Notes: a model not told the origin generated them from the sequence alone. A stretch of DNA of 33,994 nt from a virus (IMGVR_UViG_2585427621_000012), one strand, 5' to 3'. Counted from the first letter of the stretch, positions 8,297 through 33,412 are shown. A program made the numbers and translations.

Positions 8297-8890
8297 CTAT
8301 TTGTCCCGGTTGGCTAAGGGATGACACAATTTATTCTTTGTCGCTGATGAGGGGAATTTTTTATAGAGCGTGGACAGGCCAATATCAAAAATCAGCGCCA
8401 CACGTTGACGAGATTCCCCCGCAGCCAGCAACCGTCCGACCTGCTCCCACTCACTCGTGGTGAGTTTCGGTCGTCTGCCACCAATACGACCTTTGGCTCT
8501 GGCCGCTTCCAGTCCGGCGCGTGTCCGCTCGACAATGAGTTCTCGCTCCATTTCTGCCAGGGCCCCCATCACATGAAAGAAAAAGCGCCCCATCGGCGTG
8601 CTGGTATCAATAGCATCCGTCAGGCTGCGAAAATTAACGCCGCGTTCGCGCAGTTCCTCAACCAGAATGACCAGATGCCGCATACTACGCCCCAGCCTAT
8701 CCAGCTTCCAGACTACCAGAGTGTCACCTGCTGATAATGTTCTGAGCAGTTTTTTCAGTCCCGGTCGGTCGGACTTCGTGCCGCTGATTTTATCCTCAAA
8801 ATCAGCTCACATCCTGCACACTCCAGCGCATTACGCTGCAATTCCGTGTTCTGGTCATTTGTTGACACGCGTACATAGCCAATAAGCATG
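8297..8890 (-). pseudogene. Serine DNA invertase (Gin/Hin/Pin/Cin family), frameshifted as sequenced
   Basis: N-terminus MLIGYVRVSTNDQNTELQRNALECAGCE (8890 downwards) and C-terminal 128-aa ORF (...VVWKLDRLGRSMRHLV...GRIGGRRPKLT...) are in different frames; one missing base in a T-run (plus-strand A-run 8788-8791) relative to the expected ...ELIFEDKISGTK... reading. Confidence 0.7.
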
Positions 8891-8916
8891 AGCATCTCCC
8901 TGAATAAAAACCGGAG

Positions 8917-9450
8917 ATGATGCCAGTTACCCGTTATTTCTGCATTTTCATAAACGTTGGTTTGGGAGAAGGTTCGGCATTACCCGTTGGTGTGCCTGTT
9001 CCGTGGCCTTCAGCCACTCCGCCGACAGGCTGGCTGAAATGCAACGGGGCGGCTTTTTCTGCTGAAGAATACCCGGAACTGGCAAAGGTTTACCCGACAA
9101 ATAAATTGCCTGATTTACGTGGTGAGTTTATTCGTGGCTGGGATGACGGACGTGGAGTGGATAACGGAAGGGGATTATTGACGCTTCAGGACGGTGCGAT
9201 TGTCAGTCATAACCACTATTGGGGAATCTGGACTTCACGAACTAACGACCAGACTCTGGAAAGTTTTACAGGCACCACGATTTTAAAACAAATCACGCCC
9301 CTGTCTCCGGCCATTAACTTCGATAATTACCCAATTCCCAACCCGGCTATTACAGAGGGTGGTGTTGTTGCGGCAACGACTAAACCTGCAGGTGCGAATG
9401 AAACACGCCCACGAAATGTCGCTTTTAACTATATTGTGAGGGCTGCATAA
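8917..9450 (+). CDS. Alternative tail-fibre C-terminal cassette (Sv'-like), silent in this orientation
   Basis: Conserved tail-fibre C-terminal motifs (LPVGVPVPWPSATPPTGW..., LPDLRGEFIRGWDDGRGVD); no upstream constant part on this strand; the first 28 nt lie outside the invertible segment and are probably not coding. Confidence 0.6.
   Translation: MMPVTRYFCIFINVGLGEGSALPVGVPVPWPSATPPTGWLKCNGAAFSAEEYPELAKVYPTNKLPDLRGEFIRGWDDGRGVDNGRGLLTLQDGAIVSHNHYWGIWTSRTNDQTLESFTGTTILKQITPLSPAINFDNYPIPNPAITEGGVVAATTKPAGANETRPRNVAFNYIVRAA
8945..8970. repeat. Invertase crossover site, left (26 bp, hix/gix-like)
   Basis: TTTTCATAAACGTTGGTTTGGGAGAA; its reverse complement matches 10877-10902 at 20 of 26 positions, including an identical 15-bp block TTCTCCCAAACCAAC/G. 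Confidence 0.65.
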
Positions 9451-10052
9451 TGAATAACGCAGAATTAAACAGTGAATTAATTGCCACTATGGCAGGAGAA
9501 ATTACTGTTTATAACTTTGATGTCATGAGTCGGGAATATATTTCAGCTTCAACTGAATATCTTGCTATTGGTGTCGGCATTCCGGCATATTCCTGTTTAG
9601 ATGCCCCAGGCGCATACAAAGCTGGTTATGCAATCTGCCGTTCTGCAGATTTTAACTCATGGGAATATGTGCCAGACCATCGCGGTGAAATCGTCTTTAG
9701 CACCGAAACAGGAGAATCAAAAGAAATCACCGCTCCGGGTGATTACCCTGATAATACAACCACTATCGCCCCGTTAACGCCATACGATAAATGGGATGGT
9801 GAGAAATGGGTGACGGATACCGAAGCACAGCATAGCGCCGCAGTAGAAGCGGCAGAAACACAACGCCAGTCGCTGATTGATACTGCAATGGCTTCCATTA
9901 GTCTGATTCAGCTGAAATTACAGGCCGGACGGAAGCTGACGCAGGCAGAAACCAACCGACTTAACACGGTGCTGGATTACATTGACGCGGTGACGGCAAC
10001 AGATACCAGCACCGCGCCGGATGTCATCTGGCCTGAACTGCCGGAGGCGTAG
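9450..10052 (+). CDS. Tail fibre assembly protein, alternative copy (U'-like)
   Basis: 200-aa ORF with the conserved Tfa C-terminus (...LDYIDAVTATDTSTAPDVIWPELPEA); start overlaps the stop of the preceding cassette (TAATG). Confidence 0.75.
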   Translation: MNNAELNSELIATMAGEITVYNFDVMSREYISASTEYLAIGVGIPAYSCLDAPGAYKAGYAICRSADFNSWEYVPDHRGEIVFSTETGESKEITAPGDYPDNTTTIAPLTPYDKWDGEKWVTDTEAQHSAAVEAAETQRQSLIDTAMASISLIQLKLQAGRKLTQAETNRLNTVLDYIDAVTATDTSTAPDVIWPELPEA

Positions 10053-10516: not shown

Positions 10517-11716
10517 TTACTCACCAACAGCCCACCAACTGTAATTCATCGATACCGTGTCGCTGGTTGATGACGTTCTGTAAGCAGAATTAAAGCCGGT
10601 TAACGTTGGGCCTTCTGCAGTCATCACGAACCCTCGCCCAGCGCCTAAAGGCGCACCGCCATCACCAGAATGAGTAAGCATGGCGCAGTCCGCTTTTTTG
10701 GGGAAAGGGATGCTGAATGTAATTCTCATTGTTTGCGTCGATAATGTCGGCGTAACCGCACCACGACCATATTGCAGGATTTTACCGTTGGGTAATTTCA
10801 TCCATCCATCACCACTGGCAAAAGAGGCCATGTCCGGTATCTGATTTTCCCCTGTCCCCACATCCCGTTTTGCCGCTTCTCCCAAACCAAGGTATGCGAG
10901 AAGACCGGCAACATCCTTTCCACTCAAATGAGTCAGCGTCTCATCCAGTGGCTGCTTACCTGACAGCGCATTGTTAATGGTGGTGCTGAATTTCGGGTCA
11001 TTGTTAATGGCCGCGGCAATTTCTTTCAGTGTGTCCAGCGTGTCTGGCGCGCCGTTAATCAGAGCGGTAATAGCGGTCTGAACAAACTCAGTGGTCGCAA
11101 TCCGCGTGGTGTTATTTCCTGCGGCAGGCGTTGGCGCTTTTGGTTCTCCGGTAAATGTCGGATTATGTTTCTGCGCATACTGGGTATGAGGATCCTGTGC
11201 GGCAATGTGGTTTCTCATCTGGTCATCCACATACAGCCTTAATTCCAGGACTTTATCATCCACGTATTTACGGGTCGCCAGTACCACCGACGGGTCGATT
11301 TTCAGCGTGATGGCTTCGGTATTCGTGACAACCAGAATCATGCGGATAGTCTGGGTACGACCGCTGCCTTCCTGTAACTGCGGTTTGTACGTTTCCGGGC
11401 AGTTCGCCACCGCAATGAGTACGCCTTCATCATCATAAAGCCCAATCTCACGGATCCAGAATCCGCCCTCGTTCTCAGGGATGATTTGCTCCGCAATAAT
11501 CTGGCTCTGGTTGTTCGGGTCAACACTCAGAAGATTCAGCGGCGCGATGCGTTTCTGGTTAATAAGTTTTGTCTGTGCCGGGTCAGGTGTCGGCAAGACA
11601 CCATTTGCATCACCAACGGCCATTTGCGTCAGATTCAGCTTACTGCCGAGCATCGTCGCGTTAGCCAGCCGTGCCGCGCCCTGATTAGTCAGAATGGCGT
11701 AGTATTTCACTGTCAT
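10517..11716 (-). CDS. H: Tail fibre protein (gpH-like), active orientation
   Basis: 399-aa ORF; N-terminal about 250 aa resemble P2 gpH (...GGFWIREIGLYDDEGVLIAVAN..., ...NDPKFSTTINNALSGKQP...); C-terminal part differs and begins at the crossover site (..YLGLGEA..). Confidence 0.85.
   Translation of the reverse strand: MTVKYYAILTNQGAARLANATMLGSKLNLTQMAVGDANGVLPTPDPAQTKLINQKRIAPLNLLSVDPNNQSQIIAEQIIPENEGGFWIREIGLYDDEGVLIAVANCPETYKPQLQEGSGRTQTIRMILVVTNTEAITLKIDPSVVLATRKYVDDKVLELRLYVDDQMRNHIAAQDPHTQYAQKHNPTFTGEPKAPTPAAGNNTTRIATTEFVQTAITALINGAPDTLDTLKEIAAAINNDPKFSTTINNALSGKQPLDETLTHLSGKDVAGLLAYLGLGEAAKRDVGTGENQIPDMASFASGDGWMKLPNGKILQYGRGAVTPTLSTQTMRITFSIPFPKKADCAMLTHSGDGGAPLGAGRGFVMTAEGPTLTGFNSAYRTSSTSDTVSMNYSWWAVGE
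10877..10902. repeat. Invertase crossover site, right (26 bp), inside the tail-fibre gene
   Basis: TTCTCCCAAACCAAGGTATGCGAGAA; imperfect internal dyad (TTCTCCCAAACC / GGTATGCGAGAA) around a central AA; encodes YLGLGE at about residue 270 of H. Confidence 0.65.
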
Positions 11717-20476: not shown

Positions 20477-20649
20477 TGTCAGGAGTCCTGAATAGTGATT
20501 AGAAGAGTCACATGTCGGCATCAGTTTCCCGACGATGCGCATCCTCCGCCATCAGTCCCGGATGGCTTATCACTGACACAACAGCACCTTAGCGAATCGC
20601 GGGGCGCGACTCAGTAGCCTTGCCGTGTATTCATCACGGCGAGGTATTC

Positions 20650-22422
20650 ATGACCATCACCACAGACACCACTCTTTTACACGACCCGCGTCGTCAGGCG
20701 GCGCTGCTGTACTGGCAGGGATTTTCCGTGCCGCAGATTGCCGCCATGTTGCAGATGAAACGCCCGACGGTGCAGAGCTGGAAACAGCGCGACGGCTGGG
20801 ACAGCGTTGCCCCCATCAGCCGTGTCGAAATGAGTCTGGAAGCGCGGCTGACCCAGCTCATCATCAAACCGCAGAAAACCGGCGGTGACTTCAAGGAAAT
20901 TGACCTGCTCGGACGCCAGATTGAACGACTGGCACGGGTAAACCGCTACAGCCAGACCGGCAACGAGGCAGACCTTAATCCGAACATCGCTAACCGCAAC
21001 AAAGGCGGGCGGCGCAAACCGAAAAAGAATTTTTTCAGTGACGAGGCTATCGAAAAGCTGGAGCAGATTTTCTTTGAGCAGTCTTTCGAATATCAGTTGC
21101 ACTGGTATCGCGCCGGGCTTGAGCACCGCATCCGCGATATCCTGAAATCCCGCCAGATTGGCGCGACGTTTTATTTTTCCCGCGAGGCGCTGCTGCGCGC
21201 CCTGAAAACCGGTCATAACCAGATTTTTCTGTCGGCCAGTAAAACGCAGGCGTATGTGTTCCGCGAATACATCATCGCCTTTGCCCGGCTGGTTGACGTT
21301 GACCTGACCGGTGACCCGATTGTCCTGGGCAATAACAGCGCAAAACTGATTTTTCTCGGCACCAACTCCAACACCGCGCAGAGCCATAACGGCGACCTGT
21401 ACGTCGACGAGATTTTCTGGATACCGAATTTTCAGGTACTGCGTAAGGTGGCATCAGGTATGGCCTCACAGAGTCACCTGCGCTCGACCTATTTCTCCAC
21501 CCCGTCCACGCTGGCGCACGACGCCTACCCGTTCTGGTCGGGTGAACTGTTCAACCGGGGACGCGCCAGCGCCGCCGAACGCGTGGAAATCGACGTCAGT
21601 CATAACGCTCTTGCCGGTGGGCTTCTCTGTGCGGACGGTCAGTGGCGGCAGATTGTCACCATTGAGGACGCCCTGAAAGGTGGCTGCACGCTGTTCGACA
21701 TTGAGCAGCTTAAACGCGAAAACAGCGCCGACGATTTTAAAAACCTGTTCATGTGTGAATTTGTTGACGACAAGGCGTCGGTGTTCCCGTTCGAGGAGCT
21801 GCAACGCTGCATGGTCGACACGCTGGAAGAATGGGAAGACTATGCGCCGTTTGCCGCGAATCCGTTCGGCTCCCGCCCGGTCTGGATTGGTTACGACCCG
21901 TCACACCGTGGCGACAGTGCCGGATGCGTGGTGCTGGCACCGCCGGTGGTGGCCGGTGGCAAATTCAGAATACTTGAGCGTCACCAGTGGAAAGGCATGG
22001 ACTTTGCCACCCAGGCTGAATCCATCCGCAAACTCACCGAAAAATACAACGTCGAATACATCGGAATTGATGCCACCGGCCTCGGTGTCGGCGTGTTCCT
22101 GCTCGTTCGCTCGTTCTATCCCGCCGCACGCGATATCCGCTACACGCCGGAAATGAAAACCGCAATGGTGCTCAAGGCAAAAGACGTTATTCGCCGTGGC
22201 TGTCTGGAATATGACGTCAGCGCCACCGACATCACCAGCTCGTTTATGGCTATCCGCAAGACCATGACCAGCAGCGGACGCAGCGCCACCTATGAGGCCA
22301 GCCGCAGCGAGGAAGCCAGCCACGCCGACCTCGCCTGGGCGACCATGCACGCCCTGTTAAATGAGCCACTCACCGCCGGTATCAGCACCCCGCTGACATC
22401 CACCATTCTGGAGTTTTACTGA
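20650..22422 (+). CDS. P: Terminase large (ATPase) subunit gpP
   Basis: 590-aa product starting MTITTDTTLLHD...; divergent from O, as in P2. Confidence 0.9.
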   Translation: MTITTDTTLLHDPRRQAALLYWQGFSVPQIAAMLQMKRPTVQSWKQRDGWDSVAPISRVEMSLEARLTQLIIKPQKTGGDFKEIDLLGRQIERLARVNRYSQTGNEADLNPNIANRNKGGRRKPKKNFFSDEAIEKLEQIFFEQSFEYQLHWYRAGLEHRIRDILKSRQIGATFYFSREALLRALKTGHNQIFLSASKTQAYVFREYIIAFARLVDVDLTGDPIVLGNNSAKLIFLGTNSNTAQSHNGDLYVDEIFWIPNFQVLRKVASGMASQSHLRSTYFSTPSTLAHDAYPFWSGELFNRGRASAAERVEIDVSHNALAGGLLCADGQWRQIVTIEDALKGGCTLFDIEQLKRENSADDFKNLFMCEFVDDKASVFPFEELQRCMVDTLEEWEDYAPFAANPFGSRPVWIGYDPSHRGDSAGCVVLAPPVVAGGKFRILERHQWKGMDFATQAESIRKLTEKYNVEYIGIDATGLGVGVFLLVRSFYPAARDIRYTPEMKTAMVLKAKDVIRRGCLEYDVSATDITSSFMAIRKTMTSSGRSATYEASRSEEASHADLAWATMHALLNEPLTAGISTPLTSTILEFY

Positions 22423-23456
22423 TGAGCAAGAAAAAAGGGAAAACACCGCAACCTGCGGCAAAAAAAATGACCGCCAGCGCCCCGAAAATGGAGGCATTCA
22501 CCTTTGGTGAACCGGTGCCGGTACTCGACCGCCGTGACATTCTGGATTACGTCGAGTGCATCAGTAACGGCAGATGGTATGAGCCACCGGTCAGCTTTAC
22601 CGGTCTGGCAAAAAGCCTGCGTGCTGCCGTACATCACAGCTCACCGATTTACGTCAAACGTAATATTCTGGCTTCAACGTTTATTCCGCACCCGTGGCTT
22701 TCCCAGCAGGATTTCAGCCGCTTTGTGCTGGATTTTCTGGTGTTCGGTAATGCGTTTCTGGAAAAGCGTTACAGCACCACCGGTAAGGTCATCAGACTGG
22801 AAACCTCACCGGCAAAATATACCCGCCGTGGCGTGGAGGAGGATGTTTACTGGTGGGTGCCGTCCTTCAACGAGCCGACAGCCTTCGCGCCCGGCTCCGT
22901 GTTTCACCTGCTGGAGCCGGATATTAATCAGGAGCTGTACGGCCTGCCGGAATATCTCAGCGCCCTTAATTCTGCCTGGCTGAATGAGTCGGCCACGCTG
23001 TTCCGCCGCAAGTATTACGAAAACGGCGCTCATGCCGGATATATCATGTACGTCACCGATGCCGTGCAGGATCGCAACGATATCGAAATGCTTCGCGAAA
23101 ACATGGTCAAGTCGAAAGGCCGCAACAACTTTAAAAATCTGTTTCTCTATGCCCCGCAGGGGAAAGCCGACGGCATTAAAATTATCCCGCTCAGTGAAGT
23201 GGCAACGAAGGACGATTTTTTTAATATCAAAAAAGCCAGCGCCGCTGACCTGCTGGACGCGCACCGCATCCCCTTTCAGTTGATGGGCGGCAAGCCGGAG
23301 AACGTCGGGTCGCTGGGTGATATTGAGAAAGTGGCAAAGGTCTTTGTCCGCAATGAGCTTATCCCGCTACAGGACAGGATCCGCGAGATAAACGGCTGGC
23401 TCGGTCAGGAGGTCATCCGCTTTAAAAACTACTCACTGGACACTGACAACGGCTGA
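22422..23456 (+). CDS. Q: Portal protein gpQ
   Basis: 344-aa ORF, P2 Q size; start overlaps the P stop. Confidence 0.9.
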   Translation: MSKKKGKTPQPAAKKMTASAPKMEAFTFGEPVPVLDRRDILDYVECISNGRWYEPPVSFTGLAKSLRAAVHHSSPIYVKRNILASTFIPHPWLSQQDFSRFVLDFLVFGNAFLEKRYSTTGKVIRLETSPAKYTRRGVEEDVYWWVPSFNEPTAFAPGSVFHLLEPDINQELYGLPEYLSALNSAWLNESATLFRRKYYENGAHAGYIMYVTDAVQDRNDIEMLRENMVKSKGRNNFKNLFLYAPQGKADGIKIIPLSEVATKDDFFNIKKASAADLLDAHRIPFQLMGGKPENVGSLGDIEKVAKVFVRNELIPLQDRIREINGWLGQEVIRFKNYSLDTDNG

Positions 23457-23461
23457 ACATC

Positions 23462-23483
23462 GCCGCCTGCGGGCGGCTTTTTT
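23462..23483 (+). terminator. Rho-independent terminator after Q
   Basis: GCCGCC-tgcg-GGCGGC hairpin followed by TTTTTT. Confidence 0.6.
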
Positions 23484-23625
23484 ACACCCCGTCATCACGC
23501 CCTCACACGCTCACCACCGCACAAAACACCCCGCAGACACACCAACGCCTCAACGGGCAGACTAAGCGCCATCACGACGCGCTCAGACGCTGAAAAAATA
23601 AAATCAGCACCACCGCCAGCGCGCA

Positions 23626-23644
23626 GTGCTTTCCCCGCCTCGCC
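23626..23644. other. cos site (19-nt cohesive end, GGCGAGGCGGGGAAAGCAC on the minus strand)
   Basis: Reverse complement of 23626-23644 equals the remembered P2 cohesive-end sequence; flanking sequence toward Q matches the remembered P2 left end. Confidence 0.75.
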
Positions 23645-23773
23645 CGCCCGCTTCATGTGGCGATTTTAATGCGGTTGCATTTTTATCGAAAGTCTCGTCT
23701 CACAAATCCCTCCCTTCACTAAATAGACTCATTATCCACATGCAATCTAATTCAAAAAAATGCATGTATAGTA

Positions 23774-25744
23774 TTAAAGGTCATCAATTAAACCTAAAGG
23801 CAAACCGTCCTCACCAACCGAGCTATAATGAGCGATAATATTCGAAAGTTCACCAGTAGAAAACGAATTAGGCAAATCATTATCAACTAATATAATCTGG
23901 CACGGAACATTTTTTCTTTCTGCTTTTTGAACTGTATTCAATAGTTGTTCATAAATATTTTGATACTTCATCGGATCTGACATTCCCTCAAGGTCATCCT
24001 CGAATGCAAGAGTTTCTTTTGAATATTTTTCCTTGGTCTGTTTCCCTAAATATTTGCCAACCGTATCAAATATCAAAAGTAAAGGATGGTTAACATTATG
24101 ATCTATTGCATAATCAAGAATAGACAAAAGATACCCAATAGAAGAAATAGTTCTCAAACCTCCGGATGTTATTTTAAAATATTCTTTTTCTCTTATAACA
24201 GGAATGTAATAGCTTTCAGAGATTTTTATCCCCGTTCTGTTTTTGATATTAATACCCTTCAAATACTGACTAAATCTATCACCCAAACCTTGTAAAATGC
24301 CCTCCATGCTAGGTGCGTTTTTCTTTAACGCCTCCAAGCGTTCAGTTAATGCTTCAATATCTTTTCTCAGTACCTGATACTTTTCAAGCAGTTCCTCTTG
24401 CTGGTTTCTAACCTTCAAATCTTTTACTAACTGCTCCCTAACCTTCTCATTTTTTGAGATCTCTTTAATATAAAAATCTCTCTGAGTCAAGAATGGTGTA
24501 ATCATTGACTGGCTTTCTTCGTCAATCAATTCTCTCAACTCGTCAAGTCGTTCATCTAATTCCTTTTTATAACCTGATTCTTTTTTTAATTTAAATGACA
24601 TTTCTGAGATCATGTCATTAATATTTCGTCTACGTCGACTAAGTGAATTCAACTCTTCATTAAGATCTTTTTCTGATGAAATTTCAAATGGAAAATCAGA
24701 ATCATCTATTTTAATGTGGCTATCACAGACTGGACAGGAAAATACTTCCTTATCCAATACACCAATGCGAGAATTTGCTGTTTTAATCGCTTTGAGTTTT
24801 TCAATATCATTATCATAGTCATTTTTTAACCGCGAATATTTATCAATCTTATCCTCAAGCGCAGTAATATTTAATATGCACTCTTTGTATTTAAGCGAAA
24901 TAAAATTGTGAGCATCTTTCAATTCTGTATACTGTATGGAATCCGCTTTCATATTTTTATCGAGAGCAGACAAACCTGCAACAAGTTCTTCTAAAACAAG
25001 ATCTATCCTATTAATCTCATCATCAATTGATTCAATCGTTTCATAGTCTGTATCGCGAAGAAATTCAGATATTATCTGATACTTCCTATTTAATTCCGTT
25101 ACTAAACTACTTTTTGCAGATATTTCACCTTGGAGTCTGGCGATGCTTTCATCCAACACATTGAACATGTATTTAAAAACTTCTTTCGTAAATGCGTAGC
25201 GGGACCAATCACCCAATCGCAAGAAAGATTTACTACCAATATCATCCTGACTTACATAAACAAATTTATATATATTTCTAAAACTTAACCTGCGCATCTG
25301 TGAATGAGCTTTAGAAGGAGACACCTTAATTTCAATCTTTGGAAAATTAAGACTATCAAGTAAAAACTCCGAAAAAACACCATCAACATTTGATAATGGG
25401 CTATAATTAGGAGCGTATTTTTTCGGAAAATGTTTATGTAAATCATCAAACTTACAACGATAAACTTCTATTGCTTTTTTATGATCATAGATATCTCTTA
25501 CGATTGTGAATACAGTATCATTGATCACTACTTCAAGAGCAGCATAGTTTACTGATGTTTTTATTTCATCTGCTAAATCTATAGAGCTAGCACCTAAAAG
25601 ATAATTAATAAACTCCAGAATGCTTGACTTACCTGTGTCAGAGTCTCCGTAGATAACATTGAGACCTTTATAAAAAGTAGTGACGTAGTTTTTACGAACG
25701 CCAACAAGAATCAAACTATTGATATTGAGATATGATTTCATCAT
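23774..25744 (-). CDS. Rad50/SbcC/SMC-like ABC ATPase with coiled coil and CxxC zinc hook (candidate defence ATPase, LmuB-like)
   Basis: 656 aa; Walker A GDSDTGKSS near the N-terminus; long low-complexity charged, helical middle with CPVCD at about residue 336; C-terminal signature-like TSGG, Walker B LLLIFD, and ILVDND; AT-rich codon usage. Confidence 0.7.
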   Translation of the reverse strand: MMKSYLNINSLILVGVRKNYVTTFYKGLNVIYGDSDTGKSSILEFINYLLGASSIDLADEIKTSVNYAALEVVINDTVFTIVRDIYDHKKAIEVYRCKFDDLHKHFPKKYAPNYSPLSNVDGVFSEFLLDSLNFPKIEIKVSPSKAHSQMRRLSFRNIYKFVYVSQDDIGSKSFLRLGDWSRYAFTKEVFKYMFNVLDESIARLQGEISAKSSLVTELNRKYQIISEFLRDTDYETIESIDDEINRIDLVLEELVAGLSALDKNMKADSIQYTELKDAHNFISLKYKECILNITALEDKIDKYSRLKNDYDNDIEKLKAIKTANSRIGVLDKEVFSCPVCDSHIKIDDSDFPFEISSEKDLNEELNSLSRRRRNINDMISEMSFKLKKESGYKKELDERLDELRELIDEESQSMITPFLTQRDFYIKEISKNEKVREQLVKDLKVRNQQEELLEKYQVLRKDIEALTERLEALKKNAPSMEGILQGLGDRFSQYLKGINIKNRTGIKISESYYIPVIREKEYFKITSGGLRTISSIGYLLSILDYAIDHNVNHPLLLIFDTVGKYLGKQTKEKYSKETLAFEDDLEGMSDPMKYQNIYEQLLNTVQKAERKNVPCQIILVDNDLPNSFSTGELSNIIAHYSSVGEDGLPLGLIDDL

Positions 25745-25853
25745 TTCTCCTTGAAGACTTGATTTATAACAGAGTTTAACTTAGAGGTAGGCAATGCTTG
25801 TAGCGGTAACAATGCTTCGGATAGTCGTTTTATTTCTTTAAAATATCCATCAG

Positions 25854-26252
25854 TCAATGAGCTAGCAAATTCCTTACCTTTTTCAGATAAAAATAATTTA
25901 ACACTCTCATTATTTTTTTCTCAGCTGAGAGCAATCCCCGCAATGACATAATTTTTATAAGATATTTCACTTTGGAATTGTCGAATAAGATATCTACATT
26001 TGTTGAAAAACTCTTTATTGTATAAGTTAACTGGGACTCGACACAAGCAGGCTTTTTCCCCGAAACTGTAAGAGCATAATCAATTTTTGATGGGTTTTTT
26101 ATCAGATACATAAAAATTTGTATTTTATTAATATCTAATGATAACACTCCTTTTTTGCTATGAGATAATATAGATATAGCAATGGCAAGCATAGCAAAAT
26201 TCAAGCTATACTCTTCATCAAGAGGAATATACGGCAAGTTATTTTTCTTCAT
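25854..26252 (-). CDS. Small middle-component protein of the three-gene module; as sequenced 132 aa, possibly about 170 aa if a frameshift at an A7 run is resolved
   Basis: ORF between the hydrolase and ATPase genes; a second open frame (25741-25912, ...SVKLFLSEKGKEFASSLTDGYFKEIKRLSEALLPLQ...) continues to a TGA overlapping the ATPase ATG. Confidence 0.55.
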   Translation of the reverse strand: MKKNNLPYIPLDEEYSLNFAMLAIAISILSHSKKGVLSLDINKIQIFMYLIKNPSKIDYALTVSGKKPACVESQLTYTIKSFSTNVDILFDNSKVKYLIKIMSLRGLLSAEKKIMRVLNYFYLKKVRNLLAH

Positions 26253-27462
26253 GATTACCTCGCCGTAATTGCTCCAAAGTTTCTACGCTGGTTTCAGATG
26301 ACCAGACAATATCCCTGTCATTTTTGTTAGCCAGTTGATGCAACATTCCTTTCTTATGTATCGTTTCTAAACTTTTTATAAGAGAATCTAACGACGACTT
26401 ATCCTCTTGGGCTATTCGTCTATGAACAGCAGCAATAAATTTATCTGGGGAAATTGAATTCGCGATATATTGCTCATACTCTTCCTGGTAAATCTCCCTT
26501 ATTTTAGAATACAAATGACCAAGTAGTTTCCTATCGTAATCACTCGTAAAAATATTTCTCGCAAGCTCAGCATTATAATAATATTCCTTTGCATGCATAG
26601 CGATATCCTGATGTATATCTGCGACAATCATTTTTAAGACGAAATACTCATTATCATATTGTTTCTCATCAGAAAAACGCTCAACACATATCTTCTTGGG
26701 TGCTTCTAAATTTATCTGCTGAATAAATTGCTTTACCGCAACAAACACTGTAGACGAGCTGTTTTCGGGCTTGCAAATTGAGCTATGCCCTTCATTAACT
26801 GCAATTGAGTTATTTCGTTCACTATCCATCGGTAATGCGCTTTTTTTATCAACTATAGTGTCATGAGAACCATAAACATATCTAGTGATAGGAAGTTTTT
26901 TGCTACAATTTATCCAGCGCCTATTCAACGTATCGGTCGCTTCACTTAACAATCCAAGATCTACTAACTGAGCATTTGAAGATACCATTGAAGTTATATT
27001 CGCCAATTTAGCACCAAAGTGAGGGACTGCTAACGAAATGAATCCAATTATATTAGATTGTTCCTCATGCTCAACTTTTTTTAGAATTAGATTTTTTGAT
27101 ATTACCCCCCCCATACTATGGGCGATTATTATAATTCGAGAGTAATCACTTAGCGTTACCCTAATCTCAGTATACAATAACTCAGCTATTTCATCAGTTG
27201 GTAAATTTCTCTCTAACTTATTTTTCTTAGAGAAAATACGAGCCCATAATCCTGACGTTTTAGCATACGTTTGTGTAAATTTGGTGAAATAATTGAAACA
27301 TGCAATATCAAATACATTGCCAATGTCTTCATCTTCTGCTAATAGTTTTGGAAATGAAGTTTCTTTATTAAAGTTCCATGTTTCCAAACCACCATTTAAT
27401 CCATGTACAAATAGTATCAGGCTATCTTTTTTCTCGTGGCTTATCCATTCAACCATGCTCAT
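26239..27462 (-). CDS. Lipase-like alpha/beta-hydrolase (serine hydrolase) with C-terminal helical domain (candidate effector, LmuA-like)
   Basis: 407 aa; oxyanion-hole motif LILFVHGLNG, nucleophile elbow AHSMGG (AxSxG), downstream GSHDT (Asp) and NEGHSS (His) consistent with a Ser-Asp-His triad; about 170-aa helical C-terminus; AT-rich. Confidence 0.7.
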   Translation of the reverse strand: MSMVEWISHEKKDSLILFVHGLNGGLETWNFNKETSFPKLLAEDEDIGNVFDIACFNYFTKFTQTYAKTSGLWARIFSKKNKLERNLPTDEIAELLYTEIRVTLSDYSRIIIIAHSMGGVISKNLILKKVEHEEQSNIIGFISLAVPHFGAKLANITSMVSSNAQLVDLGLLSEATDTLNRRWINCSKKLPITRYVYGSHDTIVDKKSALPMDSERNNSIAVNEGHSSICKPENSSSTVFVAVKQFIQQINLEAPKKICVERFSDEKQYDNEYFVLKMIVADIHQDIAMHAKEYYYNAELARNIFTSDYDRKLLGHLYSKIREIYQEEYEQYIANSISPDKFIAAVHRRIAQEDKSSLDSLIKSLETIHKKGMLHQLANKNDRDIVWSSETSVETLEQLRRGNHEEK

Positions 27463-27551
27463 ATGCTTTTCTGCCGTGTATAAAAATTAAACTATAACAA
27501 ACAATTCCTCAACAATAACATATTGTTACCCCGTTTGACCGTTTTTTTCAA

Positions 27552-29834
27552 CTACCACTCACGCTGTCTGTCAAAAAAGTCGATATCGTTATCAAATTTA
27601 AAACGCTTATGCCCAAAATCCAAAACAGCTCCGCGAGCGAGAGCTTCAAGCTCCCAATAACTAGCCTGAATGTCACTTTGTGCAAGAAGAACCTTAATTT
27701 TCGGGATAGTCTTTCTCTCCTGCCTTGTCAACCGGGCGGATGGGGCAGGAAAGTAGCTTCGACCATTGAAAGGGGTAAAGCTCTGCTGTGAACGATTACT
27801 GCATTTCAGTTCATTACTCAATAAGTCTCTAAGTACCTTCATAATGCCTGGCTCGGTCCAACTTAGAATCCCTTCATCTATTAAATTTAACACCGCTGCA
27901 GCATGCTCAGTCGGTGTGGGAGCCGGTAACGAAGTATCACCACCGGTGAGTTTTCCACAGTTATTGACAGGACTCCGAGGCGCGGCGATGCCGCTTTTTA
28001 AAGTCAAAGGCTCAACGACCGGAACTTTCGGCACAATGCGCCAGTCCGTCGTTCTGGTGATATGAATATGACGCGCGCCGAGATGCGGCGCGTAAATGCC
28101 GACCACTCTCTCGACTTCTTCCTCGTACTCGTTAACGTCATCCGACGGGCTACGGGCGACCCTGACAGTCTGACAATCGCGCGGGACATTTGCCCCACCC
28201 TGCGCGCTGATATACAACGCAAAATCACCACTGTCTGCGGCAGCGCGAGCAGCCTCGACGCGTTCGTCAAACTCATCAGCAATACTGACGCCGCGAGGCA
28301 ATTTGCGTAGTTCACGGTAAGCCCCCATTGTCGGCAGTCCAACCGTTTTAAATTGCGGAATGCGCCACGTTGACGCCCATGCGGTAACAGCCGCGGCAGT
28401 ATCTTTAAGCGGCTTACCGGTATCGTTATCGAGCTGACCATCCAGTGCATAGCCGTCGATGTTTTTTGAAATGTATTTCGCGATATATCCCGCAGCACCG
28501 CCCCGGTTAAGGTGTTTTGCCTGAAAACGGTTTCGCGCAGCTCCTCTTTCGTCTCCATCCTCTTTGAGCGCGTAGCGACGCATGATTTCGATAATCTGGT
28601 TACGCTGGCGTGGATTACAAAAAAGCATCATATGCCAGTGCGGCGTTCCGTCGTGGTGTGGCTCGACGACACGCAAACCGTAGACCTGTAAATCATTATC
28701 CTTGAATGCCGTGCGCATCAGGCTCCAGATGCGGCAGAGATAACGCTGCGCATCCTTTGGATTAAATGCCTCATCGTTCCAGCCGTGATTAAGCTGAACG
28801 GTTTTACTTTCGCCTTTTCTGACCTGACGTGTCGGGTGATACTTTGACGGCGCGGTCAGCGTGATAAACATCCCCACATCACCCTCTGCGGCGGCGTAAC
28901 GCTCAATACCGGCAATGGTGTTCATCAGCTCCATCCGGCGAATTTCAGGATTAGAAATACTGCCCATCACCTTACTGATAAGGTCGATGCGCTCGCCGGT
29001 TTCCCTGTTTTCAAGGTCACACGATTTAAGAAATTCCAGATTTGCCTGGCGGCGCGCACGCACATCACGAATGGCGTGTTTACTGGCATAAGGAGAACGG
29101 TCTTTATTGACCTCCCCGACAGCTATCAGTAACGCTTCATGCCAGCGCATACGCTGGCCTTTAAGCTGATGAGTCCACCACTCATCGTTAAACAGACGGG
29201 CAATGGCAGAATATGCCTGCCTCGTGGTCATCTGCCCTTTACGGTATATTTTCCAGTAGAGAGGGGAAATATTGAAAGCACGTGCAGCGCCAGCAACATG
29301 ACCATAGAGGTGAGCCTGCGCCTCATCCGTAAACAGCGATTCTTTTTCGCCATGCGCATCCACCCAGGCATCACTGAGTTCCCCATACATCATGAAAAGC
29401 TGCGATGAGATACGGGCAGCAAACTTTTTCAGCTCCTTGTCATTCATTCCCGGCAGGCGCGCATAGTGGTCACGCTCTGCCAGAAACAGTAACGACGCGT
29501 CGGTGTTCATTTCATGGCGCTGATTCACACGCTCAATGCGCGGCCATAAACGACGCTGAAAAGTGGATGTGAGGAAATAAAACCCGTGCACCGGGCTTTT
29601 ATTGCGCCGGATGTGGTCATAGCGTGAAGTAAACAGCGAGCGCAAAAAGTAAGGCAGGCGGTTAATCGTGGATAAAACACCTTGCACCTGACGCATCTCG
29701 TCACGTGTAAGGGGTCTTTCGCGCCCGACGGCCTCGCGTGGCGCGTTCCATGCATAAGCACCGGTAAACGCCTTACCGGTGCCTGCAGCAAATGCTGACG
29801 GAGGGACAAAACGCCCGGAGGCTTTAACGGCCAT
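27552..29834 (-). CDS. A: Replication initiation protein gpA (rolling-circle nickase)
   Basis: About 760 aa, recognised as P2 gpA (...GFYFLTSTFQRRLWPRIERVN...HDGTPHWHMMLF...); start chosen at MAVKASG (ATG 29834) for the smaller overlap with the upstream ORF; the track start at 29876 is an alternative. Confidence 0.8.
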   Translation of the reverse strand: MAVKASGRFVPPSAFAAGTGKAFTGAYAWNAPREAVGRERPLTRDEMRQVQGVLSTINRLPYFLRSLFTSRYDHIRRNKSPVHGFYFLTSTFQRRLWPRIERVNQRHEMNTDASLLFLAERDHYARLPGMNDKELKKFAARISSQLFMMYGELSDAWVDAHGEKESLFTDEAQAHLYGHVAGAARAFNISPLYWKIYRKGQMTTRQAYSAIARLFNDEWWTHQLKGQRMRWHEALLIAVGEVNKDRSPYASKHAIRDVRARRQANLEFLKSCDLENRETGERIDLISKVMGSISNPEIRRMELMNTIAGIERYAAAEGDVGMFITLTAPSKYHPTRQVRKGESKTVQLNHGWNDEAFNPKDAQRYLCRIWSLMRTAFKDNDLQVYGLRVVEPHHDGTPHWHMMLFCNPRQRNQIIEIMRRYALKEDGDERGAARNRFQAKHLNRGGAAGYIAKYISKNIDGYALDGQLDNDTGKPLKDTAAAVTAWASTWRIPQFKTVGLPTMGAYRELRKLPRGVSIADEFDERVEAARAAADSGDFALYISAQGGANVPRDCQTVRVARSPSDDVNEYEEEVERVVGIYAPHLGARHIHITRTTDWRIVPKVPVVEPLTLKSGIAAPRSPVNNCGKLTGGDTSLPAPTPTEHAAAVLNLIDEGILSWTEPGIMKVLRDLLSNELKCSNRSQQSFTPFNGRSYFPAPSARLTRQERKTIPKIKVLLAQSDIQASYWELEALARGAVLDFGHKRFKFDNDIDFFDRQREW

Positions 29835-30099
29835 ATGAGCCAAAAGCCTCTGAGCAACGCTTGCTGAGTTGCTCAACCTGCGCGTTTAAATCAGCAAAAG
29901 ACTTTGCGCTTCCGGTCAGAATATCGTGATGCATCAGGCCGGAAACGAGCTGGCTTAATTTCGGGTAATAACCAACCACCGCCAGCCATTCCTGACCGGC
30001 GTTTTTACCGCTTTCCGCTCTCTTTTTCTCGTGGAGAATAAACTGAAAGCTGTCACTGGTAACGACATAACGTTCGCCAATTTCAATACGAATACTCAT
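29824..30099 (-). CDS. Hypothetical early-operon protein (P2 orf83-like position)
   Basis: 91-aa ORF tightly packed between a zinc-finger ORF and A; function unknown. Confidence 0.55.
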   Translation of the reverse strand: MSIRIEIGERYVVTSDSFQFILHEKKRAESGKNAGQEWLAVVGYYPKLSQLVSGLMHHDILTGSAKSFADLNAQVEQLSKRCSEAFGSYGR

Positions 30100-31863: not shown

Positions 31864-31984
31864 CTGCTACGATTCTCCCTTAGTGCTTCTAATGGCTCCT
31901 AATGGCTAATTATTGCCTAAAAGGATAACTCCAGAAGCACAACATTTCACACTATCAGCAAGAAATTACGCAATCGGAGTAATT
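31864..31984. promoter_or_regulatory. Immunity switch region (Pe/Pc promoters and repressor operator), with tandem CTAATGGCT repeats at 31889-31897 and 31899-31907
   Basis: 121-bp gap between divergent cox and C; two 9-bp direct repeats spaced 10 bp apart, resembling the direct-repeat operators of P2-type C repressors. Confidence 0.45.
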
Positions 31985-32284
31985 ATGTCAATAGACGTTT
32001 CGGAGAAGTTGAAGCTAATCCGTGAATCTGAAAGGTTAAACCGTAAAGAATTCAGTGAATTAACTGGTGTAGCCTACAGCTCACTTTCGAGCTATGAGAG
32101 CCGGTCAAAAAACGCTGGAGTTGAAGCCATAATGAAGGTCTTACAACATCCTAGATTTACTAAATATACTTTGTGGTTCATGACTGATCAGGTAGCTCCA
32201 GAAGCCGGGCAAATTGCGCCCGCTCTCGCACACTTTGGGCAAAACGAAACAACGTCGCCCCACTCCGGTCAAAAGACTGGTTAA
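31985..32284 (+). CDS. C: Immunity repressor C
   Basis: 99-aa product from ATG 31985 (MSIDVSEKLKLIRESERL...); C-terminus ...FTKYTLWFMTDQVAPEAGQIAPALAHFGQNETTSPHSGQKTG is P2 C-like; track ORF is 5'-extended. Confidence 0.8.
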   Translation: MSIDVSEKLKLIRESERLNRKEFSELTGVAYSSLSSYESRSKNAGVEAIMKVLQHPRFTKYTLWFMTDQVAPEAGQIAPALAHFGQNETTSPHSGQKTG

Positions 32285-32398
32285 CAATTTATCGTGAATA
32301 TATTCATCACAAGTGCCTACTATTGGTGGCTAAATTTCAGCCACACGAAAAAAGCGATTAGTAGTAGCAAAAAAAAGTACCACTCGGAGGGTTTTCTG

Positions 32399-33412
32399 AT
32401 GGCAATCAAAAAACTCGATGATGGTCGATATGAAGTGGACATCCGCCCTACTGGACGTAACGGAAAACGCATCCGTAGGAAGTTTGATAAGAAAAGCGAA
32501 GCTGTCGCTTTCGAAAAATACACGTTGTACAACCACCACAATAAAGAATGGCTATCAAAACCAACAGACAAACGACGTCTGTCGGAACTGACACAGATCT
32601 GGTGGGATTTAAAGGGTAAACACGAAGAGCATGGGAAATCTAATCTTGGAAAAATTGAAATCTTCACAAAAATAACGAATGACCCATGCGCATTTCAAAT
32701 CACGAAATCCCTTATCAGCCAGTACTGCGCCACCCGAAGAAGTCAGGGTATTAAACCTTCGAGTATCAATCGTGATTTAACATGTATTAGCGGCATGTTT
32801 ACAGCCCTGATTGAAGCGGAGTTATTCTTTGGTGAGCATCCTATCAGAGGGACAAAGAGGCTTAAGGAGGAAAAACCAGAAACAGGCTATCTCACACAGG
32901 AAGAAATAGCCTTACTGCTTGCAGCACTTGACGGCGACAATAAAAAGATTGCGATTCTTTGCCTAAGTACAGGAGCACGTTGGGGAGAAGCAGCTCGTTT
33001 GAAAGCAGAAAATATCATCCATAACCGCGTCACGTTTGTTAAAACGAAAACAAACAAACCACGCACCGTCCCGATCTCAGAGGCTGTTGCCAAAATGATC
33101 GCGGATAACAAACGAGGTTTTTTATTCCCTGATGCTGATTACCCTCGCTTCAGACGAACAATGAAAGCAATAAAACCGGATTTGCCAATGGGGCAAGCCA
33201 CACATGCACTAAGGCACAGCTTTGCCACTCATTTCATGATTAATGGAGGAAGTATTATCACGCTACAACGGATACTAGGTCACACGCGGATTGAGCAAAC
33301 TATGGTTTACGCTCATTTTGCGCCAGAGTACCTTCAGGACGCCATTTCTCTTAATCCGCTAAGAGGTGGTACTGAGGCCGAGAGTGTCCACACAGTGTCC
33401 ACAGTAGAGTAA
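32399..33412 (+). CDS. int: Integrase (tyrosine recombinase)
   Basis: 337-aa product from MAIKKLDDGRYEVDIRP...; catalytic-region motifs (...HALRHSFATHF..., ...LGHTRIEQTMVYAHF...); next to the right att copy. Confidence 0.9.
   Translation: MAIKKLDDGRYEVDIRPTGRNGKRIRRKFDKKSEAVAFEKYTLYNHHNKEWLSKPTDKRRLSELTQIWWDLKGKHEEHGKSNLGKIEIFTKITNDPCAFQITKSLISQYCATRRSQGIKPSSINRDLTCISGMFTALIEAELFFGEHPIRGTKRLKEEKPETGYLTQEEIALLLAALDGDNKKIAILCLSTGARWGEAARLKAENIIHNRVTFVKTKTNKPRTVPISEAVAKMIADNKRGFLFPDADYPRFRRTMKAIKPDLPMGQATHALRHSFATHFMINGGSIITLQRILGHTRIEQTMVYAHFAPEYLQDAISLNPLRGGTEAESVHTVSTVE

Follow-up and report, generated by a model that had tools for sequence, protein, structure and literature searches.

A probable lipase-effector type II Lamassu (ABC-3C) system with a frameshifted lmuC at the tin/old locus of an E. 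coli O157:H7 P2-like prophage

The window, that is, the whole stretch of viral DNA analysed here (IMGVR_UViG_2585427621_000012; 33,994 nt), carries a three-gene module at 23774-27462. Its three ORFs are co-oriented on the minus strand at 27462..26239 (407 aa), 26252..25854 (132 aa) and 25744..23774 (656 aa), exactly where the first-pass annotation had placed them, and are called lmuA, lmuC and lmuB below. They lie within a low-GC cargo island (23681..27551; GC 0.331 vs 0.534 in the remaining window), which is flanked on the cos side by the portal gene (22422-23456, plus strand) and on the other side by a gpA-like replication endonuclease gene (gene A; 27552-29876, minus strand). The P2 cos cohesive-end 19-mer, GGCGAGGCGGGGAAAGCAC, was matched exactly at 23626..23644 on the minus strand (0 matches expected by chance), downstream of lmuB and 130 nt from its stop codon. 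The cos 19-mer and the portal and gpA flanks identify the site as the P2 tin/old locus, the cos-proximal hotspot to which the module had first been assigned. What the query has in common with sequenced P2-like phages is confined to 224 nt (23457 to 23680). The module is cargo of a P2-like prophage from an E. coli O157:H7 host. In P2-like phages, this site between gene A and cos/Q is that of old and tin, which likewise serve in phage exclusion but encode proteins unrelated to those described here. The 89 nt from the gpA stop to the lmuA ATG (27463..27551, minus strand) are the presumed promoter region; a weak sigma-70-like match (TTGAAA-18-AACAAT) was found at 27551..27522, and promoter-like matches in the region were no more numerous than chance would give (13 against 17.2). 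Such systems have been cloned with their native upstream regions (Rousset et al. 2022, PMC9122126).

The effector gene lmuA (26239..27462, minus strand) encodes an N-terminal alpha/beta-hydrolase domain (approximately residues 1-255) and, at residues 265-389, a helical CTD8 domain of the ABC-3C type. The protein, which is RefSeq WP_000063136.1 ("ABC-three component system protein"), matched the PADLOC LmuA profile PDLC03851 over its full length (E 3.5e-108), and its Pfam matches were CTD8 (PF20284; 1.7e-35, above the gathering score), DUF676 (4e-9), PGAP1, LCAT and Abhydrolase_1. In the AF2 monomer model the hydrolase core (pLDDT 84-97) has an alpha/beta-hydrolase fold and the CTD is of low confidence; the nearest folds found by Foldseek were lipases, esterases and phospholipase A, with generic alpha/beta-hydrolases and thioesterases among them. 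The predicted catalytic triad consists of S116 (in AHSMGG), D201 and H226, and H115-S116-M117-G118-G119, D201 and H226 were invariant across 39 LmuA homologues with identity down to 39%. Judged from its sequence and modelled fold, LmuA is a lipase-like alpha/beta-hydrolase with a predicted Ser-Asp-His triad.

The ATPase gene lmuB (23774..25744, minus strand) encodes a short Rad50/SMC-like protein of 656 aa, the predicted sensor. It begins with two tandem ATGs, the second of which (25741) suits both the homologue consensus MKSY and the spacing from an AAGGAG Shine-Dalgarno sequence. LmuB matched the PADLOC LmuB profile PDLC03862 over its full length (E 1.5e-235), and SMC/Rad50 coiled-coil models were matched in NCBIfam. 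Its motifs are a Walker A (G33-K39-S40, in G33xxxxGK39S), Q166, the signature S527-G-G and a deviant Walker B (IFD560-T561), with a coiled coil at about 200-520 that carries a CPVC zinc hook in its middle (C337-P-V-C340, residues 337-340). The Walker A, Q166, C337-P-x-C340, SGG and the D560-T561 Walker B were invariant in 35 LmuB homologues, and D560-T561 agrees with the form hhhhD[Q/S/T/E] reported for short Lamassu in the study of Lamassu Ec-Lipase (PNAS 2025, PMC12663957). No PDB matches were obtained by single-sequence searches. The LmuB family profile matched PDB 9hqu_A (Salmonella LmuB, K40) at 4.6e-12; the Walker motifs lined up in this match, as did the zinc hook, CPVC falling on the CPMC of Salmonella LmuB. 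The same profile matched Rad50 at 6e-5. Matches to Wadjet and Gabija were also considered and set aside: those to JetC (6e-4, in the coiled coil) and GajA (6e-4 and 6e-3, at the P-loop) were weak and short. Neither partner genes of Wadjet, Gabija or OLD (the JetABCD set, the GajB helicase) nor a TOPRIM domain were found at the locus.

Both profiles and AF2 agreed with the earlier domain calls (alpha/beta-hydrolase plus helical CTD, small protein, coiled-coil ATPase of the ABC/SMC type), and in the PADLOC profile search all three proteins matched the Lmu family. LmuA and LmuB show the features expected of short Lamassu: LmuA joins an N-terminal effector domain to an ABC-3C CTD at its C-terminal end, and LmuB is an SMC/Rad50-like ABC ATPase with a deviant Walker B and a coiled-coil insert. 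LmuB also has the CxxC zinc hook of Lamassu-Lipase. The operon likewise combines the parts by which ABC-3C systems are recognized (Krishnan et al. 2020), namely a CTD8 effector, an MC4 middle component and an ABC ATPase, and the RefSeq product names of the module genes are ABC-three component system proteins. The order lmuA (CTD8), MC4 (169-170 aa) and lmuB (655-670 aa), with overlapping stops and starts, was found in EC4115, TOE3, Citrobacter, P. aeruginosa and Methylomonas; the Citrobacter operon also lies in the P2 hotspot and that of P. aeruginosa in a defence island. The full-length PADLOC and Pfam matches (for LmuC, when intact) and this order, conserved across hosts, uphold the Lamassu type II / ABC-3C layout suggested by the first-pass annotation. 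It had also held that subtype membership could not be confirmed, but the profiles place all three proteins in Lamassu, and Lamassu_Lipase is an existing DefenseFinder subtype with a lipase effector, clade H (supplementary table, PMC12663957). LmuAs of the lipase type with CTD8/CTD9 have been discussed in Lamassu structural papers, where oligomers were predicted for them. The module is very probably a lipase-effector short (type II) Lamassu / ABC-3C abortive-infection system carried as P2 hotspot cargo, of which the window holds a copy that is probably impaired.

The probable impairment lies in lmuC (25854..26252, minus strand), which encodes the ABC-3C middle component MC4 and is present here as a frameshifted allele whose 132-aa product consists of 113 native residues and then 19 out-of-frame ones. 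By alignment with EC4115, TOE3 and REL606, the lesion was placed in an A7 homopolymer (25913..25919, minus strand; T7 on the plus strand) that is A8 in other copies; the 1-nt deletion shifts the frame after residue 113, and the intact product is 170 aa. The native C-terminal 57 residues (NNESVKLF...NQVFKEK) are encoded by the out-of-frame remainder at 25741..25912 (minus strand), whose TGA overlaps the lmuB start. When one base was added to the A7 run, a 170-aa ORF identical to WP_000739990 was obtained. The window LmuC matched the PADLOC LmuC profile PDLC03869 (4.9e-34) over positions 2-110 of 168 only and Pfam MC4 (PF20290) over positions 1-84 of 133 only, and is without about one third of the MC4 domain at its C-terminal end. 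The intact 170-aa LmuC covers 2-166 of 168 and 1-132 of 133 positions of these profiles, with MC4 above the gathering score. The frameshift had been missed in the first reading of this DNA, in which the three genes were described as an overlapping operon. The overlap holds for lmuA and lmuC (14 nt); lmuC and lmuB are separated by a 109-nt gap from the lmuC stop (25854) to the lmuB ATG (25744), which results from the 1-nt homopolymer deletion. In intact copies the stop of the 170-aa LmuC overlaps the lmuB start (ATGA).

The copy as sequenced, with lmuC truncated and uncoupled from lmuB, is probably impaired, and lmuC is required for defence in other Lamassu systems. The A7 frameshift may be a homopolymer sequencing error. 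It is a substantial possibility, though one that we lean against, that the same system is fully functional here, either because A7 is an error of sequencing or assembly or because transcriptional or translational slippage at the A-run yields sufficient LmuC of full length. Among 96 complete E. coli genomes carrying the locus the run was A8 in 94 and A7 in two (SS17 and OkiPb01683), the lesion sits inside a homopolymer, a classic place for sequencing errors, and in the O157:H7 copies listed the operon is 99.9-100% identical apart from the A7/A8 indel. In addition, neither lmuA nor lmuB is disrupted, and lmuB is served by a Shine-Dalgarno sequence of its own. However, exactly the same 132-aa product was found on 48 contigs from several sources (the 170-aa product on at least 1000), and A7 also occurs in the complete genome of OkiPb01683, whose LmuA and gpA alleles differ. 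These 48 contigs and OkiPb01683 speak for A7 being genuine, and recurrent, in some strains at least.

A likely mechanism for the intact system can be drawn from the sequestration, release and oligomerisation model of the Lamassu structural papers, from which we infer stoichiometry, trigger, activation by oligomerisation and lipid substrate by analogy. By homology with the solved Cap4-type Lamassu complexes, two folded LmuB and one LmuC would hold a single LmuA by its CTD in a monomeric, inactive state. LmuB and LmuC would respond to DNA ends or replication intermediates when a phage or plasmid invades, and LmuA would then be released, whereupon CTD8 would drive oligomerisation and the Ser116-Asp201-His226 hydrolase would be switched on. 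Active LmuA would presumably degrade membrane or other essential lipid esters, so that the infected cell dies before phage release. It seems rather unlikely, but is worth weighing, that LmuA is not a membrane lipase and acts on another ester, thioester or amide (acyl-ACP/CoA, lipoproteins, peptide), with killing or arrest occurring via metabolism. The top Foldseek matches mix carboxylesterases, thioesterases, monoacylglycerol lipases, phospholipase A and the non-catalytic NDRG at similar scores, and the Lamassu literature examined mentions neither a substrate of lipase-type LmuA nor membrane or phospholipid. On the other hand, the best sequence families (DUF676, PGAP1, LCAT) are lipid esterases, and one structural match, PDB 7x2p (Legionella RavL), was deposited as "Putative lipase"; both point to a lipase-like effector.

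The same system has been reported from the same cos-proximal locus in the P2-like prophage of E. coli B REL606 as "Hydrolase + SMC" (pFR106; Rousset et al. 2022, Cell Host Microbe, PMC9122126, Table S2B). The REL606 allele is 97.8% identical over a 601-nt lmuC segment, with near-identical proteins, and copies of the E. coli B lineage are 97.4% identical over the whole operon. Table S5A of the same paper lists an O157 entry "DUF676/PGAP1 + hypothetical + hypothetical" headed by WP_000063136. pFR106, which carries the E. coli B allele with its native promoter, is among the "additional tested systems", not the validated ones, after a test against eight coliphages (PMC9122126). The lmuC of REL606 is itself split by a 2-nt TG insertion into pieces of 50 aa and 121 aa, a lesion different from the A7 for A8 of the window, and the negative result of pFR106 is therefore uninformative. 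Lamassu Ec-Lipase of E. coli also belongs to the short Lamassu systems (clade H) and is made up of a lipase LmuA, an LmuC and an LmuB with a zinc hook. [quoted passage not shown] Its over-expression is toxic unless the catalytic His is mutated (PMC12663957). Since the numbering K42/H215 disagrees with K39 (or K38) and H226 of the window, Ec-Lipase is probably a different homologue; another lipase-type Lamassu of E. coli met in the analysis (K38, H225) also disagrees with K42/H215. The suggestion that a lipase-effector variant may be uncharacterised is not supported, since an E. coli Lamassu-lipase has been validated, the locus has been catalogued and the E. coli B allele has been cloned.

Salmonella enterica LmuACB (PDB 9HQU/9HQX) and V. 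cholerae DdmABC / Vc-Cap4 (9NY5, 9NYG) share with the window system the gene order, presumably the LmuA1-LmuB2-LmuC1 logic, and the diverged CTD6-12 / MC2-8 / short-LmuB sub-family. In both of them a Cap4 nuclease, activated as a tetramer on DNA, is the effector, whereas that of the window is an alpha/beta-hydrolase with CTD8; the window LmuC is of the MC4 type, unlike theirs, and its LmuB has the zinc hook that the LmuB of Vc-Cap4 is without. DdmABC and Salmonella LmuACB act on plasmids in addition to phages, systems of the P2 hotspot are able to target P2 relatives, and the REL606 allele was unvalidated against its eight coliphages, all of which would suit a module whose main targets are plasmids, or rival P2-like phages and P4 satellites, instead of phages broadly. 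We regard this as improbable, given that the REL606 allele is broken in lmuC and that Ec-Lipase protects against lambda-vir. A DNA-repair module of the SbcC/Rad50 type, or a prophage-maintenance module, next to an unrelated hydrolase is scarcely credible: LmuB shares the ABC-type head, coiled coil and CxxC zinc hook with Rad50/SbcC and some of its RefSeq homologues are named "exonuclease SbcC" or "Rad50", but its coiled coil is much shorter (the whole protein has about 655 aa), its Walker B is D-T and not D-E, LmuA and LmuC stand in place of the Mre11/SbcD nuclease partner, CTD8 and MC4 are specific to ABC-3C/Lamassu, the PADLOC E-values are decisive, and the genes are low-GC cargo in a known defence hotspot with relatives in defence islands.

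The type of system and its P2-hotspot location were already published, as was activity for an E. coli Lamassu of the lipase type, and the genes are labelled in RefSeq; the A7 frameshift in lmuC is a new observation. Lesions recur in natural copies: A7 in SS17 and OkiPb01683, the TG insertion in REL606 lmuC, and a split lmuA in E32511. It is conceivable, though very unlikely in our judgement, that the A7/A8 run is a slippage-prone on/off (or attenuating) switch of a potentially self-toxic abortive-infection system; if it were, the recurrent lesions would stem from selection for a silenced or modulated Lamassu-lipase and not from sequencing noise. The only published test of the window's system (pFR106, REL606) used a disrupted lmuC and should not be read as inactivity. 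Since lmuC is also disrupted in the window, cloning should use an A8 allele such as that of EC4115. The O157:H7 system would be a convenient model for the substrate of lipase-type LmuA and for how CTD8 oligomerisation may switch on a non-nuclease effector.

The three minus-strand ORFs of the operon, namely lmuA (27462..26239, 407 aa), lmuC (26252..25854, 132 aa) and lmuB (25744..23774, 656 aa), match exactly the coordinates and common orientation in the first-pass annotation, and its classification as Lamassu type II/ABC-3C proved correct, since all three proteins belong to one family. LmuA was matched over its full length by the PADLOC LmuA model PDLC03851 (E 3.5e-108), and in Pfam it combines an alpha/beta-hydrolase of the DUF676/PGAP1/LCAT type at the N-terminus with 'CTD8 of ABC-3C systems' (E 1.7e-35) at the C-terminus. 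LmuC matched both the PADLOC LmuC model and Pfam 'ABC-3C middle component 4' (MC4). LmuB was matched over its full length by the PADLOC LmuB model PDLC03862 (E 1.5e-235), with sub-threshold matches to SMC, Rad50 and RecF/RecN models. In RefSeq, lmuA and lmuC are named 'ABC-three component system protein' and 'ABC-three component system middle component 4', and lmuB is named 'AAA family ATPase' or 'SMC family protein'. The architecture of CTD8, MC4 and ABC ATPase is defined by Pfam's ABC-3C families, and the Lamassu papers name Krishnan et al. 2020 as the source of ABC-3C and the CTD/MC classification. Membership of the window operon in this family was observed directly, as were its motifs, synteny and context. 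Kinship with P2 Old/Tin, Wadjet or Gabija was rejected, as only short, weak matches turned up and the partner genes are missing.

The three ORFs fill a sharply bounded island (23681-27551) with a GC content of 0.331, versus 0.534 elsewhere in the window. The island is flanked on one side by the terminase (20620-22422, +) and portal (22422-23456, +) genes and a perfect match to the P2 cohesive-end 19-mer (23626-23644), and on the other side by a gpA-type replication endonuclease gene (27552-29876, -). In P2 this cos-proximal interval between Q and A holds old and tin, and it has been reported as a hotspot of anti-phage cargo (Rousset et al. 2022, PMC9122126). As a whole, the window represents a P2-like E. 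coli O157:H7 prophage. Over 23457-27551 it matches strain SS17 at 100% identity, and many O157:H7 genomes have practically the same sequence there. The locus was present in 96 of 5,426 complete E. coli genomes, chromosomal in every case, and a megablast search against 50,697 phage records found the cargo in no sequenced phage, the match being limited to 224 nt of cos-proximal backbone. At the left edge of the window, a host peptidase U32 family gene (within 1-1362) is followed by an ogr/delta-like gene (1636-1917, -), and an HTH repressor-like ORF (31913-32284, +) and an integrase gene (32294-33412, +) stand at the right end; the window therefore spans essentially the whole prophage. A possible invertible tail-fibre segment was also noted at 8297-10052, around which GC falls to 0.46-0.48. 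Its resolvase/invertase-family ORF (8297-8683, -) may be N-terminally truncated, as its match is confined to the HTH and the C-terminal half of the catalytic domain. The adjoining tail-collar-domain ORF (8917-9450, +) and tail-fibre assembly gene (9450-10052, +) point the opposite way to the main tail-fibre gene (10517-11716, -).

Homologues occur widely across the Gammaproteobacteria. In Citrobacter, P. aeruginosa and Methylomonas the conserved order is LmuA (CTD8), an MC4 protein of 169-170 aa and an LmuB of 655-670 aa, with overlapping stops and starts. The Citrobacter operon also lies between gpA and portal of a P2-like prophage. In P. aeruginosa CP199231 (1-8747 of the extracted locus), the immediate neighbours of the operon encode an OLD-like TOPRIM ATPase, a NERD/Zn-ribbon protein and a Fic protein, a setting typical of a chromosomal defence island and consistent with a defence role of the family. 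Furthermore, a second, divergent lipase-type Lamassu was found in 13 complete E. coli genomes. In DETEC-S560 (NZ_CP116094; 3593-7283 of the extracted locus), its LmuA and LmuB are 54.5% and 51.7% identical to those of the window, its LmuC (168 aa) is intact, and all three genes overlap. Its neighbours are ArdC, MobC, a type IV coupling protein and IS903B, which places it on an ICE-like or mobilisable element and not in a P2 prophage.

The operon had been described as overlapping, which holds for lmuA and lmuC (14 nt shared), but the lmuC stop and the lmuB start are 109 nt apart. Alignment with other copies showed that this gap is due to a frameshift: the coding strand of the window lmuC has a run of seven A (A7; T7 on the + strand, 25913-25919), whereas the other aligned copies have eight (A8). 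After residue 113 the frame shifts, so that the native C-terminal 57 residues are lost and 19 aberrant ones are added. When one base was added to A7, a 170-aa ORF identical to RefSeq WP_000739990 was restored, and its TGA overlaps the lmuB ATG. The intact 170-aa LmuC covers positions 1-132 of 133 of Pfam MC4 (95 bits) and 2-166 of 168 of the PADLOC LmuC model (176 bits); for the 132-aa window LmuC these are 1-84 of 133 (61 bits) and 2-110 of 168 (115 bits). It has been reported that LmuC is required in other Lamassu systems and lies at the centre of the sequestration complex. The truncated LmuC of the window would therefore be likely to impair the system, barring a frameshift artefact or a bypass.

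A7 was found in only two of the 96 complete genomes, SS17 and OkiPb01683, and in a large protein collection the exact 132-aa LmuC occurred in 48 contigs versus at least 1,000 for the 170-aa form. The A7 allele is thus carried by a minority of copies and may reflect either genuine, recurrent slippage or a recurrent homopolymer sequencing error; the LmuA and gpA alleles of OkiPb01683 differ from those of SS17. There is little support for the idea that the A-run works as a switch turning a self-toxic prophage defence on and off.

The start of lmuB contains two tandem ATG codons (25741-25746), and its RefSeq annotation varies (656 aa in SS17 and EC4115, 655 aa in REL606). The second ATG (25741; 655 aa) is favoured as the probable start by the homologue consensus MKSY... 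and by the spacing to an AAGGAG Shine-Dalgarno motif. In the promoter/terminator scan, promoter-like matches were no more numerous than expected by chance, so any promoter assignment is weak, and a canonical intrinsic terminator for the operon was not found. The sole downstream terminator-like match (23622..23607, -) is next to the cos 19-mer, and its significance is questionable. An imperfect palindrome, ACATGCA...TGCATGT, was spotted by eye only in the ~90 nt (23681-23773) between the P2-conserved backbone and the lmuB stop.

In LmuA, the nucleophile elbow H115-S116-M117-G118-G119, D201 and H226 are invariant in 39 homologues with identity down to 39%, and judged from these residues the Ser-Asp-His triad is complete. 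An AlphaFold2 model built from the 39-homologue alignment gave pLDDT of 84-97 for the alpha/beta-hydrolase core, low confidence for the lid loops, and low confidence (mostly <50) for the helical CTD8 part. Foldseek neighbours of the model were lipases, carboxylesterases, monoacylglycerol lipases, thioesterases and membrane phospholipase A with similar scores. As these are generic alpha/beta-hydrolases, the fold does not define the substrate. The family profile matched PDB 7x2p (Legionella RavL), deposited as 'Putative lipase'; phmmer with the single LmuA sequence gave one marginal match in the PDB, and the lipase was reached by the profile only. The name 'lipase-like serine hydrolase' is thus well supported, and its putative substrate is a lipid.

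For LmuB, Walker A (G33...G38-K39-S40), Q166, the zinc hook C337-P-x-C340 halfway along the coiled coil, the signature S527-G-G and the Walker B end D560-T561 are invariant in 35 homologues, the last conforming to the 'hhhhD[Q/S/T/E]' pattern described in short Lamassu systems. In the PDB, the LmuB profile matched 9hqu chain A (E 4.6e-12), with heads, coiled coil and hook all aligned, followed by Rad50 heads (6e-5). We take chain A to be Salmonella LmuB, given the position of its Walker A lysine, K40, which agrees with the K40I mutant of a Gruber-lab preprint. Single-sequence phmmer searches of the PDB with LmuB or intact LmuC gave no matches, and the solved LmuB was reached by profile only.

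The best-supported mechanism would be that of the solved Cap4-type Lamassu complexes. A single LmuA would be held by its CTD on two folded LmuB protomers and one LmuC, and the complex would bind DNA ends; in vivo, LmuB was reported to be enriched at a replicating phage origin. Released LmuA would oligomerise via its CTD, upon which the effector would become active and the infection would be aborted. The authors of the structural work predicted dimers or higher cyclic oligomers for lipase-type LmuAs (CTD8/CTD9), and stated that how oligomers activate a non-nuclease effector is not known. By homology, the stoichiometry, the trigger, activation by oligomerisation and action on lipid would probably extend to the window system.

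The suggestion that the operon may be an uncharacterised variant was not supported. The system is already known: 'Lamassu_Lipase' is an existing DefenseFinder subtype, and the O157 arrangement 'DUF676/PGAP1 + hypothetical + hypothetical', in which the first protein, WP_000063136, is the LmuA of the window, was listed among P2-hotspot contents (Rousset et al. 2022, PMC9122126). Protection against lambda-vir was shown for Ec-Lipase, an E. coli Lamassu of the lipase type (clade H, with zinc hook); it was abolished by LmuB K42A and by LmuA H215A, and over-expression toxicity was relieved by H215A only (PMC12663957). However, K42/H215 fit neither the window system (K39 or K38, and H226) nor the second, ICE-like E. 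coli lipase-Lamassu (52-55% identical; K38/H225). Ec-Lipase may therefore be a different homologue; the bioRxiv supplements to that work give neither its strain nor an accession.

The allele of E. coli B REL606 was cloned as pFR106, 'Hydrolase + SMC', which appears in Table S2B ('additional tested systems') and not S2A ('validated') and is absent from the three active P2 systems described (Rousset et al. 2022, PMC9122126). In REL606 (NC_012967; 2542-3056 of the extracted locus), a 2-nt TG insertion splits lmuC into ORFs of 50 and 121 aa, so the negative result of pFR106 says nothing about the intact system. In O157:H7 E32511 (2767-3989 of the extracted locus), lmuA is split into ORFs of 119 and 255 aa. 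Together with A7 in SS17 and OkiPb01683, these lesions suggest either recurrent inactivation or recurrent sequencing errors. What is added here to a known system is the lmuC frameshift of the window, the independent lesions in other natural copies, and the observation that the one published test of exactly this system used a broken allele.
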